Below, in pieces: positions 877-48,493 of a DNA stretch of 64,000 nucleotides; position 1 is the stretch's first letter; every line of letters begins with the position of its first letter. Where the stretch lies: the IMG/VR virus record IMGVR_UViG_3300032307_000764, positions 184,192-248,191 of that record, one strand, 5' to 3'. Made by a program: the position numbers and the translations under genes. The notes below the pieces were generated by a model. That model was given only the letters and a program-made list of their open reading frames with translations, searched no databases and was not told the DNA's origin. This stretch comes from a virus. Lineage: Duplodnaviria; Caudoviricetes.

Positions 877-925
877 GTGCGCTAAGGTTTTCCTGTAGCA
901 GCCACAAGAATTCGGGAGGAACCCC
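877..925 (+). repeat. About 49-nt extended junction repeat, copy 1
   Basis: GTG..CTAAGGTTTT...GTAGCAGCC.CA.GAATTC.GGAGGAACCCC; near-identical copies at 1561-1609 and 4021-4067. Confidence 0.9.
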
Positions 926-942
926 AGCGAACGAATCTTAGA

Positions 943-979
943 AATCATTTTTTATTTAGTAGAAAAATCTTTATATTTG
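943..979 (+). promoter_or_regulatory. Bipartite early promoter
   Basis: AATCATTTTTT at 943, TATATTTG at 972. Confidence 0.8.
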
Positions 980-1003
980 TATCAACCAATTAAAACAAAT
1001 ATT

Positions 1004-1195
1004 ATGTCATTAAGTCAAGAAGAAAAACAAGAGGTCCTAAAAGGAGTAGACCATGCAATTAACGCTACTGAACAAACAGTGTTGGCGTTGAAGGACACAT
1101 ACGAATTTGCTCATCTCAAAAGGATCTCAGACATCCTAGTTGCTCAAGAGCTTTCGTTGAAGGAATTAAAAGATTTACGAAACTCAATATCATAA
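1004..1195 (+). CDS. Hypothetical coiled-coil protein (start revised from 977 to ATG 1004)
   Basis: The TTG at 977 lies inside the promoter; A-rich leader precedes ATG 1004. Confidence 0.75.
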   Translation: MSLSQEEKQEVLKGVDHAINATEQTVLALKDTYEFAHLKRISDILVAQELSLKELKDLRNSIS

Positions 1196-6011: not shown

Positions 6012-6188
6012 ATGAAAGTAAAAATAGGAGAAAAGATTTACGATTCAGAAAAAGAACCTATTATGGTGATATTATCAGATGCAGACAAAAAAAATATTCA
6101 CAATATGTTACCAACAGCAACAAAATATTGTAGTTTTCCTGATGAAATCCCAACAGAAGATATAAAAGAATTTATGAAGACCACATAA
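6012..6188 (+). CDS. 58-aa hypothetical protein (not in ORF track)
   Basis: MKVKIGEKIYDSEKEPIMVILS...FMKTT*. Confidence 0.7.
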   Translation: MKVKIGEKIYDSEKEPIMVILSDADKKNIHNMLPTATKYCSFPDEIPTEDIKEFMKTT

Positions 6189-6197
6189 TCATAATAC

Positions 6198-6297
6198 AGT
6201 CAGGTGGTGTAATTGGTAACACGGGGTTCGAGTCCCCAATCTTCTCGAAGGGAAGATAAAGGCTGGCAAGATACAGGTTCGAGCCCTGTCCTGACTA
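6198..6297 (+). tRNA. Atypical tRNA-like RNA (possible CGA anticodon, very long extra arm)
   Basis: Acceptor AGTCAGG/CCTGACT, D-arm GTGT/ACAC with GG loop, T-arm ACAGG-TTCGAGC-CCTGT; 100 nt; 4-bp GGGG/CCCC arm. Confidence 0.55.
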
Positions 6298-40554: not shown

Positions 40555-41415
40555 TTACATAATTGGAGATTGGTTGTCAGGTGTACATGGCATTAAAAAA
40601 CGTAGATATCCTTTTTCTTGAGAGAATATAGGAGTCTCTAGATCAGCTTCCCATTTACTTCTTTTGTAAGATTCAATTACGCGAGTCTTTCCGTCCATGA
40701 TAGGCTCGCTCTTTTTAGGATACACATGTTCAACTTTTCGAATAAGACTACCTCTCTTTTCTCTTGGGCTATAGTCATTCCAGTTGATTCCCTTTTGAAA
40801 AATCATCTCCTGCATCTCGTCAGTCTTCTTACCATGCAATTCTTTTTGTGAATATAGACTTTGAGCAACAGAAGAAATTGAATTTCTAGTAGCATCTTGC
40901 TGTCTCCAGATAAAGTAGTTAATCACCTCTTCTTGATAAGGGATCTGAAATACACGAGCGTCAAACATTGCAAGTTTGAAGATTTCAATTTCCGTTTCTG
41001 AAATGTAACATTCATCTCTAAACTTTGGTTCAATACCAGAATTTCTAGCAAATCTTGCCATTCTCAATTGATTAAACTTTGCAGTTGCCAATGAAGCAGC
41101 GATACTCGCCATTTTCTGCAAGTTACAGTCAAACCAAGCATGAGTTGAGATGTCATCGTAATCAGTGATGAGAATTGAAATCTCATCTGATTGAACGTAT
41201 CCAAATTTTGCTCCTTGGATATTCTGACATAAGTACTCGGTTGTTTTGTTCATGTCTTCCATTAACCCGACATCGAATGGACGATTAAGTCCTTTGGTGT
41301 AAGTGTGGAATGCTTTTCCGTCAATACGGATGATCGTGTTGGTGCGACGTACCAACTTGTGTCGTGTTCGGTCTTCGTAGAAGTCCTTCATTCTGTCGCC
41401 TAGCGAATCTTTCAT
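40555..41415 (-). CDS. thg1: tRNA(His) guanylyltransferase Thg1-like protein (3'-5' polymerase)
   Basis: LGDRMK...IIRIDGKAFHTYT...YVQSDEISIL...QKMASIAASLAT...FDARVF...YFIWRQQDATRNSIS. Confidence 0.93.
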   Translation of the reverse strand: MKDSLGDRMKDFYEDRTRHKLVRRTNTIIRIDGKAFHTYTKGLNRPFDVGLMEDMNKTTEYLCQNIQGAKFGYVQSDEISILITDYDDISTHAWFDCNLQKMASIAASLATAKFNQLRMARFARNSGIEPKFRDECYISETEIEIFKLAMFDARVFQIPYQEEVINYFIWRQQDATRNSISSVAQSLYSQKELHGKKTDEMQEMIFQKGINWNDYSPREKRGSLIRKVEHVYPKKSEPIMDGKTRVIESYKRSKWEADLETPIFSQEKGYLRFLMPCTPDNQSPIM

Positions 41416-41420
41416 TTATT

Positions 41421-41921
41421 TTAATTTTCAATTACAATTTCCTCAACCTCCTCAAATATGAAATCATCATAATCTAAACCTAACCACTTAAATCTTCCTT
41501 CGTGGTTTAGATAATGATTGAATACTTTTATCATGTCATCCACCTGTGGCATGATCTCAAGAAGATTAGATGACTTGCTCTCTAATACGAATGTGAGTGG
41601 TTCTGGTCCCGTATCACTAATGTAAGTTGTAATTTTCCAATCTCCTCCATATTGCCAATAACGCCTATCGATGCAAGATTGAATGAATCTCAATGCTGAC
41701 AGGTTGTGACACTTGAAAAAGATAAGATATGGTTTGTAATTGTGGCCACAGCACGATTCATTTGTTTCAATCCCTTTAATTGAATTAAGAGTGTCACACA
41801 GGTCAACACATTCGGCGTCCATCCATCCTCTATCCTGATTGTCTTTACCCATTTGGCTTAAGATCTCGCTATTACTAAGAACCTTGTCGCCGTAATCTAC
41901 TTTGTTGTTTAATCTTTTCAT
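41421..41921 (-). CDS. Hypothetical protein, weak resemblance to the TYW3-like N-terminal motif
   Basis: D..CVDLCDTLNSIKGIETNESCCGH. Confidence 0.45.
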   Translation of the reverse strand: MKRLNNKVDYGDKVLSNSEILSQMGKDNQDRGWMDAECVDLCDTLNSIKGIETNESCCGHNYKPYLIFFKCHNLSALRFIQSCIDRRYWQYGGDWKITTYISDTGPEPLTFVLESKSSNLLEIMPQVDDMIKVFNHYLNHEGRFKWLGLDYDDFIFEEVEEIVIEN

Positions 41922-41935
41922 TCTTTATTATTTAG

Positions 41936-42018
41936 AAGTCAGGACAGGATTCGAACCTGTATTGGCTCCATCCTTAACGGATGGGTTCGGATCCCACACC
42001 TCTTTACGCCACCTGACT
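41936..42018 (-). tRNA. Atypical tRNA-like RNA (ambiguous anticodon, CCG or TTA reading)
   Basis: Acceptor AGTCAGG/CCTGACT, T-arm ACAGG-TTCGAAT-CCTGT; weak D-arm. Confidence 0.55.
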
Positions 42019-42027
42019 ATATTAATA

Positions 42028-42252
42028 CTAGTTTTCCTGTTTTGATAAACGCTCTAATAACTCTTCAGCTTCCTTGATTACTTTAGAAGTATTGTCTAGC
42101 ATTTCAGAAATTCTTTTATCCTCCCCTTTATATTTAGTAAAAAGAAGAGCTCCAATAACTTCTAAATCACAACCCATTAATCCGCCTTCTTTTAATTTTT
42201 GAGCTATTTCGTCTGCCTCTCTCTTTAGTCCTTCTAGTCTATAATTTTCCAT
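42028..42252 (-). CDS. Hypothetical protein between the two tRNA-like genes
   Basis: 74-aa ORF. Confidence 0.7.
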   Translation of the reverse strand: MENYRLEGLKREADEIAQKLKEGGLMGCDLEVIGALLFTKYKGEDKRISEMLDNTSKVIKEAEELLERLSKQEN

Positions 42253-42265
42253 TTTTAATTTTTTG

Positions 42266-42346
42266 TGGTCTTAGCAGGATTCGAACCCGATGTAATCCGT
42301 TTTAGAGGCGGACCTACCTAGCCATGGTAGTTTAAACTCTAAGACC
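42266..42346 (-). tRNA. Putative amber suppressor tRNA (anticodon CUA) with non-canonical D-region
   Basis: Acceptor GGTCTTA(G)/(C)TAAGACC, anticodon arm TCCGC-CTCTAAA-ACGGA, T-loop TTCGAAT, discriminator A. Confidence 0.62.
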
Positions 42347-45744: not shown

Positions 45745-46317
45745 ATGTCAAACACATTAAATCTCCCAGGACCACATTCAAGAAATCTTTTTTTAGCTAA
45801 ACAAGTAGACCAAGATTCAATCAACTCGATCACTAAATCTATCATCGAAATAAATGAAAGCGATGAATATGTTTCTAAGATCTACGAAGCTCATGATTTG
45901 GAATATAAGCCAAAGCCAATAAAACTTTATATCGATTCTTACGGAGGTTATGTTTACCAGTGTATGGGTTTACTTAGTATTATGAAATCTAGTAAAGCTC
46001 CAGTACATACTATTGTAACTGGCTGTGCTATGTCTTGTGGATTTCTTATTTCTGTTTCAGGGCATAAGCGTTTTGGATATCCTAAAGCAACTTATATGTA
46101 CCATCAGGTATCATCAGTAGCTGTAGGAAAAGTAAAAGACCTCGAGGAAGATGTAATAGAAACAAAAAGATTACAAACTATTATTGAGGAAATTACATTA
46201 GAAAATACAAAGATTACACAGAAAAAATTGGATAAGATCTATAAAACCAAGAAAGATTGGTTTATGGATACTAACGAGGCACTTAAGTTAAAAGTAATCG
46301 ATGAGGTGATAGATTAG
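45745..46317 (+). CDS. clpP: ClpP-family protease subunit
   Basis: LYIDSYGGYV...TIVTGCAMSCG...MYHQ...DWFMDTNEALKLKVIDEV. Confidence 0.9.
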   Translation: MSNTLNLPGPHSRNLFLAKQVDQDSINSITKSIIEINESDEYVSKIYEAHDLEYKPKPIKLYIDSYGGYVYQCMGLLSIMKSSKAPVHTIVTGCAMSCGFLISVSGHKRFGYPKATYMYHQVSSVAVGKVKDLEEDVIETKRLQTIIEEITLENTKITQKKLDKIYKTKKDWFMDTNEALKLKVIDEVID

Positions 46318-47062: not shown

Positions 47063-48493
47063 ATGACAAAGATTGCTACTAAAAAATATGAGCCAACTTT
47101 TGATCTTTCTATTTTAAATGAGGATCAAAAAAAGGCTTTTGACGAATTAAGGGATTTTATATACGATGCCCATGATGATAACATATACGTTTTAAAGGGA
47201 TGGGCAGGTACAGGAAAGACATTTTGCGTCAGTCTTTTAGTTAGATACGTTCTTGATGTTATTTACCCAAGTAAAAATTGGTATAGAGTAGCAGTTACAG
47301 GTCCTACGAATAAATCTGTAAGGGTAATAAAGAAAACCACAGGAATAAAAAATGCTAGAGTTACATTCCAAACCATTCACAAACTATTAGGTTTAACTGA
47401 AAGAATAACACCAGACGGTCAGCAGGAATTTGTAAACCAAGGTGATTTCGTTCCACAGATCCAAAAGACTAAGTTATTAATCATAGACGAAGTTTCTATG
47501 CTTAACGATGAGCTATTTCACGAGATACTCAGATACAGAGACAAGGTTAAAATAATCTGTATGGGAGATCCAGCTCAGATTCCTCCAGTTGGAAAGCCTG
47601 ATTGTATTCCTTTTAGAGACGAACTTTCCGAAATGTATGGGATTAAGACAATAGATCTTAAAACCATAATGAGACAGAAAGAAAATAATCCGATAATAGA
47701 CAAATCCGTTAAGATAAGAAAAGATCTAGAAAATCCTTATGTCGATACAGGGACAGAAACAATGGTAAATGAAAACGAAGAGGGTGTTGAATTTTTAAAT
47801 CTCAATTCATCAGATATCAGAAGTACATTTCCTGATATTCTTTCAAAGTATTTTAATAGCGAAGATTTCAAAGAAGACCCGGAGTATTCTAAGATAATTG
47901 CGTGGAGGAACAAGACCGTTGAGAAAATGAATCATGTAGTTAGAAAGGTTATCTACGGTGAAGAAAACGTCGGTGAAAAAATACTAATAGGAGAAAAGCT
48001 TATAGCAAACAATCCTATCATAGAAATGAACCAGATCCTATTTAACACGAACGATGAGTTTACCGTTGATAGATTCGATATTAAATTTTGGAGGACTAGC
48101 ATAGAGGGAGAAAAATACGAACTTAAATTCTATGAGACTGGTGTTAGTTTTATCAATGACGAGGAGAAAAGAGTGGTTTATTATATAGATATTCTACACG
48201 AGGATTCTGAATCACTTTTCCATGTACTTGCTAATAGACTTAAAAAGATAGCAATAGAGAAAAGAGGAAAGGAAAAAACATGGATCAAGTATTATGATTT
48301 TCTAAGAAGATTTGCAGATGTTAGTTATGCTTATGCTATCACAGCACACAAATCACAGGGAAGTACATATACAACTGCTTTTGTTCTCGAGGATGATATA
48401 GATGTTAACCAAAATGTAGTAGAAAGAAATAGGATCAAGTACACAGCTTACACAAGATCTAGTAAGAAATTGTACGTTCTTAAGAGGTTTTGA
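47063..48493 (+). CDS. dda: Dda/RecD-like SF1B helicase
   Basis: GWAGTGKT, TIHKLL, IIDEVSM, GDPAQIPPV, YAITAHKSQGSTY, YTAYTR. Confidence 0.9.
   Translation: MTKIATKKYEPTFDLSILNEDQKKAFDELRDFIYDAHDDNIYVLKGWAGTGKTFCVSLLVRYVLDVIYPSKNWYRVAVTGPTNKSVRVIKKTTGIKNARVTFQTIHKLLGLTERITPDGQQEFVNQGDFVPQIQKTKLLIIDEVSMLNDELFHEILRYRDKVKIICMGDPAQIPPVGKPDCIPFRDELSEMYGIKTIDLKTIMRQKENNPIIDKSVKIRKDLENPYVDTGTETMVNENEEGVEFLNLNSSDIRSTFPDILSKYFNSEDFKEDPEYSKIIAWRNKTVEKMNHVVRKVIYGEENVGEKILIGEKLIANNPIIEMNQILFNTNDEFTVDRFDIKFWRTSIEGEKYELKFYETGVSFINDEEKRVVYYIDILHEDSESLFHVLANRLKKIAIEKRGKEKTWIKYYDFLRRFADVSYAYAITAHKSQGSTYTTAFVLEDDIDVNQNVVERNRIKYTAYTRSSKKLYVLKRF

Follow-up and report, generated by a model that had tools for sequence, protein, structure and literature searches.

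A tRNA-shaped RNA of a freshwater jumbo phage as a probable non-decoding member of a phage-specific family built on one tRNA frame

The locus and its partner copy

The RNA gene examined here, E2, lies in the genome of a freshwater jumbo phage represented by an IMG/VR virus record of 248,191 bp (34% G+C, ~85% complete), and the window that we analyzed is the final 64 kb of that record, a stretch that is densely coding under table 11. An alternative genetic code for the window was considered and rejected, since the coding density under table 11 is already high. A search of the whole phage genome with the Rfam tRNA model found three places only, which we call E1, E2 and E3, and recovered no ordinary tRNA genes. 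Elsewhere in the genome, beyond the window, lies the gene for a true tmRNA (G000:C1:136909-137400, plus strand; Rfam RF00023, 73.4 bits), for which ARAGORN gives the tag peptide EEAEMLLAA.

E2 is an 83-nt tRNA-shaped RNA gene on the minus strand (41936-42018), where it stands in the middle of a gene run that reads, in order, E3, ORF74, E2, ORF166 and a Thg1-like gene. At the head of the run, E3 (42266-42346, minus) is an odd-shaped CUA (amber-reading) tRNA with a different frame (Rfam tRNA 26.6 bits, loop CUCUAAA). ORF74 (42028-42252, minus; 74 aa) has its stop codon 9 nt before E2, and ORF166 (41421-41921, minus; 166 aa), which carries a conserved ESCCGH motif and a weak TYW3-like signal, starts 14 nt after it. 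The last gene of the run (40555-41415, minus) encodes a Thg1-like 3'-5' nucleotidyltransferase of the type that repairs tRNA 5' ends (Pfam PF04446, 96.3 bits; 97.7 bits in the genome search). A few kilobases from this tRNA-repair cluster, on the plus strand, lie genes for a ClpP-type protease (45745-46317; PF00574, 100.8 bits) and a Dda-like helicase (47063-48493).

The partner copy, E1, is 100 nt long and lies ~36 kb away on the opposite strand (6198-6297, plus), with the same frame and another middle that includes a second T-loop hairpin. The original prediction held that the two elements have the same acceptor and T stems and unrelated inner regions, and both parts are borne out. E1 and E2 have in common their first 10 bases and a 24-base 3' block made up of the T stem, the T loop minus two loop bases and the 3' strand of the acceptor stem; their identical parts are the 7-bp acceptor stem and the T arm, and their middles do not align beyond scattered columns. 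With up to 2 mismatches allowed, the 24-base block occurs at exactly two sites in the window (6273-6296, plus; 41937-41960, minus) and at none in 100 dinucleotide shuffles. The Rfam tRNA model scores E1 at 43.4 bits and E2 at 32.1 bits, the latter when its region is searched alone (E2 is absent from the whole-window Rfam listing), against a gathering score of 29 for this model (RF00005) and 50-78 bits for the true tRNAs of related phages. We note that E1 and E2 both start exactly 9 nt past the stop codon of a small upstream ORF, and that their A/T-rich leaders (6186-6197 and 42019-42030 of the window) are similar, ending in TAATAC and TAATAT.

On the E2 RNA, the 5' strand of the acceptor stem (AGUCAGG, RNA positions 1-7; 42012-42018, minus, as for all parts of E2) pairs with positions 76-82 (41937-41943), and this 5' strand is identical in 187 of the 218 members of the family described below, with most variants staying paired as G-U. 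The T arm (ACAGG-UUCGAAU-CCUGU, positions 59-75; 41944-41960) is a family-wide constant, found in 181 of the 218 members, and E2 matches the family acceptor AGUCAGG/CCUGACU and T arm ACAGG-UUCGANN-CCUGU with 0 mismatches. The 7-bp acceptor stem and the 5-bp T stem with a UUCRANY loop are also those of a canonical tRNA (RF00005). The D region (positions 8-21; 41998-42011) is degenerate: U8, A14 and A15 are kept, but the canonical D stem of 3-4 standard pairs is missing, two of the four pairs modelled in the Rfam alignment being non-standard and ARAGORN drawing a 3-pair stem with a mismatch. The discriminator (41936) is U, where the orthologues and 199 of the 218 family members have A, and it is followed by C with no encoded CCA.

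Two alternative folds had been proposed for the interior, and both hairpins indeed exist and exclude one another. Hairpin A (positions 22-38; 41981-41997) has a 5-bp stem and a 7-nt loop, AUCCGAA, that contains CCG; hairpin B (positions 35-51; 41968-41984) has a 5- to 6-bp stem and a loop that contains TTA, the 6-bp form leaving the loop GUUAA. The two compete for positions 35-38. The minimum free energy fold contains hairpin B together with a 4-bp helix in which positions 8-11 pair with positions 53-56 (41963-41966).

A family of RNAs on one tRNA frame

A search of viral contigs for the exact frame, defined as the shared ends with a gap of 40-70 nt between them, found it on at least 119 contigs, with 115 distinct sequences of 77-105 nt among the matches listed. 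Relaxed matching, which tolerated a few mismatches and longer gaps, recovered 239 copies (218 distinct, 71-158 nt) in 122 loci, with up to 12 in one 14-kb locus. Thirteen records that were checked whole hold 1-13 copies each, on one strand per record except in the window's own genome, and a control pattern gave no match in the whole records checked. Among 185,579 prokaryote genomes the exact frame is present on only 8 contigs, all of them MAG contigs, and no GenBank phage record was found that covers the element. The frame family is large, undescribed and probably phage-specific. The original prediction, a family in which the top half of the tRNA is constant and the inserts vary, is upheld in that the frame recurs with many different middles; these inserts are not free filler, however, being both conserved and structured.

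In 54 of the 119 loci listed, tRNA genes lie near the element, often in large arrays and on the same strand in every locus printed. The frame consists of the acceptor stem, the T arm and, in most members, a D arm of the tRNA-Leu type, the D stem being missing in 16 of the 115 exact-frame sequences listed. Among the 218 members, U8 is present in 216, A14A15 in 177, G18G19 in 201, U48 in 169 and A73 in 199, with A73 missing in 19. The base at -1 is T (U) in 109 of 130 and A73 is present in 120 of 130. After the discriminator comes a C in nearly every member, then A/T-rich sequence and never CCA, and the canonical tRNAs of the same arrays are alike in this; of 16 related records, one was found to encode a CCA-adding enzyme. 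Where the acceptor and T stems vary, the changes mostly leave G-U or compensated pairs, the T-stem forms AGAGG/CCUCU and ACAAG/CUUGU being of the compensated kind, and this argues for selection on an RNA and not on a DNA site. One contig carries two near-identical frame RNAs 435 nt apart (L004:486-577 and 921-1012, plus strand) with the compensated T stem AGAGG/CCUCT, and this pair looks like a recent tandem duplication within a 7-copy cluster.

E2 bears most of these marks, having U at -1, U8, A14A15, U48, C past the discriminator, no encoded CCA and a conserved non-canonical middle that replaces the anticodon and variable arms. It departs from the family in its U73 and in its degenerate D region, which stands in place of a tRNA-Leu-type D arm, and its charging or folding may differ from that of the rest of the family.

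A canonical and correctly placed anticodon arm (5 bp with a 7-nt loop, U33 and purine 37) is present in only 2 of the 115 exact-frame members listed. ARAGORN recognizes 29 of these 115, with scattered anticodons to which introns add only implausible ones, and an intron model was rejected, ARAGORN run with introns giving scattered, mostly implausible anticodons (AUA, AAU, AAA). Rfam tRNA scores across the family are 32-49 bits versus 50-78 bits for neighboring true tRNAs. In some members a hairpin capped by GAAA or UUCG replaces the anticodon arm, and the idea that the middles are as a rule anticodon-loop decoys was rejected because their 7-nt loops lack a U33 or purine-37 signature. An ordinary-looking tRNA-Lys(UUU) (L025:13031-13101, minus strand) and a tRNA-Ile(UAU) (a 73-nt element on L101) are built on the same acceptor stem and T arm; with the frame common to these true tRNAs and to the mimics, the frame itself is compatible with decoding. 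In one phage tRNA array, a GOLLD RNA (L105:1293-1710, plus strand; RF02032, 262 bits) precedes a frame RNA (L105:1958-2060) by ~250 nt, and GOLLD was not found in the window's own genome.

The middles recur between unrelated genomic settings. In a set of 120 pairs whose similar cores come from separate contigs, core identity reaches 93-100% in many pairs and that of the 100-nt flanks on each side is ~50-58%, the random level; identity between the members of such pairs starts at +1 and stops at the discriminator plus C. Predicted hairpins in the middles are capped by GNRA loops in 18 of 52 tetraloops, UUCG is also present and T-loops recur. The predicted folds of the cores are more stable than those of dinucleotide shuffles (mean z of -0.64, n = 186). 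The original prediction had proposed that the conserved flanks be sought in related phages and the inner arms compared for covariation, and covarying helices are present in two core types: in small alignments, in one type 3 pairs of a 7-bp helix show compensatory changes and every cell pairs, compared with 32-41% when partners are slid, and in another an H-type pseudoknot is paired in every cell, 2 of its pairs being compensated. No known Rfam families were found within the middles, the only matches being tRNA and the one GOLLD nearby. An antisense guide function against the phage genome was rejected for E1 and E2, the longest complementarity of their middles to the phage genome being 12 nt, within the 10-14 nt of shuffled sequence. 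As judged from these alignments, the middles are functional, non-decoding RNA, conserved and structured.

Orthologues of E2 and competing readings

An exact search with the E2 middle gave no match, the query having spanned what proved to be a variable apex. A search anchored on the odd D region of E2 found ~96% identical orthologues on four metagenome contigs (L220, L221, L222 and L224), one of which is also in IMG/VR. Outside the RNA these contigs have no meaningful DNA similarity to the window, only short weak matches at unrelated window positions. The E2-type alignment comprises three distinct sequences over 83 columns, of which 78 are invariant; the variable columns are 26, 28 and 34 at the apex of hairpin A, 76, where an acceptor G-C pair becomes G-U, and 83, the discriminator, which is U in E2 and A in the other sequences. 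The CCGAA of hairpin A is kept. Hairpin B and the helix 8-11/53-56 are invariant and fully paired in the orthologues, which with three distinct sequences carries no covariation weight. On this alignment, E2 is a conserved RNA with one variable spot.

A rather unlikely reading is that E2 acts solely as a processing signal, in the manner of tRNA punctuation, with RNase P and 3' trimming cutting a polycistronic mRNA at a tRNA shape whose middle has no function. The spacing of the genes is in keeping with this, given the 9 nt between the upstream stop codons and both E1 and E2 and the 14 nt from the end of E2 to the next start, and the orthologues likewise follow an ORF closely and precede a gene for an RlaP-domain protein on the same strand. 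The E2-type RNA starts 8 nt past an ORF stop in L220 and L221 and ~19 nt past it in L222, and in L224 by matching flanks, and an ORF of ~395 aa begins 27 nt downstream in L220, L221 and L222, with the same flanking sequence in L224. Punctuation needs the frame only, but conservation is equally strong in the middle and the frame; the middles are, moreover, built of tertiary-contact modules, and many family members stand in pure tRNA arrays without flanking ORFs.

Very unlikely, in our assessment, is a real though oddly built tRNA-Arg(CCG) that decodes the rare CGG codon. ARAGORN does call E2 tRNA-Arg(ccg), hairpin A has the 5 bp, the 7-nt loop, a U at the 33 position and an A at 37, the Rfam score exceeds the gathering score, the phage has 18 CGG codons, and canonical tRNAs use the same frame elsewhere. 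This anticodon arm, however, is present in E2 alone among its orthologues: the closing pair of hairpin A, 26-34, is broken in two of the three distinct E2-type sequences, and the equivalent of U33 is U, a gap or A. Because neither the would-be U33 nor the closing pair is kept, E2 would not be a tRNA-Arg(CCG). On the orthologue contigs ARAGORN finds no tRNA in three and a "Gly-CCC" in the fourth; in E2 itself it places the anticodon at 29 instead of ~34-35, a shift of ~5-6 nt toward the 5' end, and no D stem forms. The competing hairpin B is invariant and part of the lowest-energy fold, and CGG, at 18 of 61,448 codons (0.29 per thousand), is one of the two rarest codons in a phage without any other ordinary tRNA. 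An ochre suppressor was likewise rejected, since the loop CGUUAAG has G at 33 and, with a 6-bp stem, the loop is just 5 nt. The CCG and TTA (ochre-like) loops pointed out earlier belong to hairpins that exist, but neither is a conserved anticodon loop.

That E1, E2 and their relatives are repeats that act as DNA, serving gene shuffling as sites of recombination or homing and having a tRNA shape only incidentally, we regard as highly improbable. Identical 25-nt arms recur many times per genome, the same middle occurs in unrelated flanks, and phage tRNA regions often contain homing endonucleases (PMC13096335). On the other side, the stem variants are G-U or compensated, which is relevant to RNA and not to DNA; the tertiary-contact bases U8, A14, G18G19 and U48 and the U at -1 are kept, and copies follow the local transcription strand.

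The suggestion that E1 and E2 are pseudogenes left by the decay of a single phage tRNA gene, which would fit the degenerate D arm and U discriminator of E2 and the non-canonical build of both as tRNAs, is barely tenable given 0 changes over the 34 frame positions searched in the two copies, an E2 D region and middle kept with 78 of 83 positions on contigs with unrelated flanks, identical middles of family members in unrelated contexts and core helices that covary. The prospect raised with the original prediction, that the homologues would prove to be ordinary tRNAs and the two copies decaying, is thus not what was found, neither in the two canonical anticodon arms among the exact-frame members nor in the E2 orthologues. 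On these comparisons, E2 fits none of the three readings as tRNA-Arg(CCG), ochre suppressor or decaying pseudogene.

tRNA-repair neighbors, a proposed role and related systems

Genes for tRNA-repair enzymes adjoin the E2-type RNA in two gene settings. In the window, the Thg1-like gene lies downstream of E2 in the same run. On the orthologue contigs, the ~395-aa protein encoded directly downstream of the E2-type RNA (L220:1873-3063, plus strand, with the same gene in L221, L222 and L224) has an N-terminal RlaP domain (PF10127, 64.9 bits in the L220 copy), and the IMG/VR version of the contig confirmed where the L220 gene lies. RlaP extends damaged RNA 3' ends with nucleotides and, in vitro, makes damaged tRNA functional again (PMC12776372), and RlaP, Thg1, CCA-adding enzymes and peptidyl-tRNA hydrolases have been described as a jumbo-phage RNA-repair kit against host RNases (PMC7824862). 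We treat the adjacency as a lead, and the link is not general. A frame RNA and a degenerate second one stand just upstream of a Thg1-like gene on L040, but none of the other 23 Thg1 loci has a frame tRNA-like gene upstream of Thg1, so that Thg1 adjacency as a rule was rejected, holding in the window and L040 only. RlaP was found in none of the 119 family loci listed; the best cluster of shared neighbor proteins occurs in just 12 of these 119 loci, and PHROGs and Pfam searches on cluster representatives were uninformative. The degenerate element of L040 (L040:3140-3217, plus strand) has the family acceptor stem and D region and no T arm, and lies between the normal frame RNA and the Thg1-like gene.

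ORF166, between E2 and the Thg1-like gene, matches Pfam TYW3 at 20.4 bits, below the cut-off. Its ESCCGH motif is invariant across a family of at least 41 homologue clusters, with relatives in 62 viral loci, many on contigs >100 kb, and its structural model (pLDDT 84.8) has only weak fold matches, TYW3-like chains among them. A dedicated partnership with the RNA was rejected for this protein: the two are adjacent in the window, L004 and L005, but other close homologues are often without an adjacent tRNA-like gene.

Taken from sequence comparison, the most probable reading is that E2 is functional, does not decode, and belongs to a phage-specific family of tRNA-frame RNAs in which one constant upper body carries many folded middles. 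E2 would be transcribed inside the minus-strand run of E3, ORF74, E2, ORF166 and the Thg1-like gene; host RNase P would cut its 5' end, where the U at -1 stands, and its 3' end would be trimmed and then receive CCA from a host enzyme, in the same way as with the genuine tRNAs of related phages. As a side effect, the same cuts would separate ORF74 and ORF166 on the mRNA. The frame would supply processing, stability and a tRNA elbow, and the E2 middle, with its invariant 6-bp GUUAA hairpin and an apex that bears CCGAA and is its one variable spot, would be the specific working part that binds a putative partner.

Our best guess for the role of E2, offered as a lead and not as a result, is in a tRNA-damage conflict, where it might bait or inhibit a host nuclease directed at tRNAs, or serve the repair nucleotidyltransferases as substrate or cofactor; we make this guess because the E2 type adjoins tRNA-repair genes in both settings in which it was found. 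A fuller and more tentative version, possible though doubtful, is that the constant frame is a phage scaffold for exchangeable RNA modules and that the E2 type is a counter-defence tRNA look-alike, which would bait or block a host tRNA-cleaving nuclease or else prime or regulate Thg1-like and RlaP enzymes, with the variable apex as an arms-race contact surface.

Several known systems resemble the frame family in part. As in the family, the genes for the T4 rnaC and rnaD products (species 1 and 2 RNAs), which are small and stable, stand among phage tRNA genes and on the same strand as these, and rnaC has a tRNA-like T arm and closing stem around a non-tRNA interior. The T4 RNAs have no sequence relation to the frame family and fall below the Rfam tRNA threshold, and T4 has two such RNAs, without one constant frame reused with hundreds of middles in up to 13 copies per genome. 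Type II tRNA-Leu shares with most family members the D arm sequence type, U8, A14, A15-U48, A73 and the absence of an encoded CCA, and LeuRS is not known to read the anticodon; nearly all members, however, lack a Leu anticodon arm, their acceptor and T arms differ from those of the true tRNA-Leu of the same arrays, and E2 differs further in its U73 and missing D stem. The allo-tRNAs and other tRNAs of (8/4) or (9/3) architecture, with an 8- or 9-bp acceptor and a 4- or 3-bp T stem, are also tRNA-shaped but not canonical, having long extra arms and unusual anticodons, whereas E2 has a 7/5 architecture and no conserved anticodon loop.

The tRNA-like domain of tmRNA is similar to E2 in having an acceptor stem and T arm, no anticodon and a reduced D region, and the likeness extends to the interior-closing helix in which positions after the acceptor pair with positions before the T arm. 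Unlike tmRNA, E2 has no G3-U70, its position 3-70 being U-A, and at 83 nt it is far too short for threading a tag frame through the ribosome; no Rfam tmRNA match was found at E2. A mini-tmRNA with a tag ORF, for which a 7-codon GUG-to-UAA frame after AGAGG was considered, was rejected on these grounds and because the phage has a real tmRNA. Engineered "tRNA scaffold" RNAs are laboratory constructs in which the tRNA body is kept and a cargo replaces the anticodon arm, and they are processed and stabilized by cells. The frame family has the same architecture, but it is natural and its cargos are conserved.

This analysis adds the orthologues of E2, the finding that its anticodon reading fails, and a neighborhood with RlaP and Thg1. 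Annotation is affected directly, as tRNA finders miss frame RNAs or assign them arbitrary anticodons, here yielding a false tRNA-Arg and potentially a false suppressor, and such calls mislead analyses of codon usage and recoding. For engineering, the family is a natural precedent for tRNA-scaffolded RNA cargos. The T4 species 1 and 2 RNAs were reportedly sequenced in the 1970s, and the tRNA-like stable RNAs of phage tRNA clusters are said to have gone unexplained since; the frame family indicates that RNAs of this kind can form a large modular system in which one tRNA body, present in hundreds of uncultured phages, carries many conserved and folded middles, up to 13 per genome. Within it, the E2 orthologues give a testable lead, the same RNA standing beside two different tRNA-repair nucleotidyltransferases in different phages.
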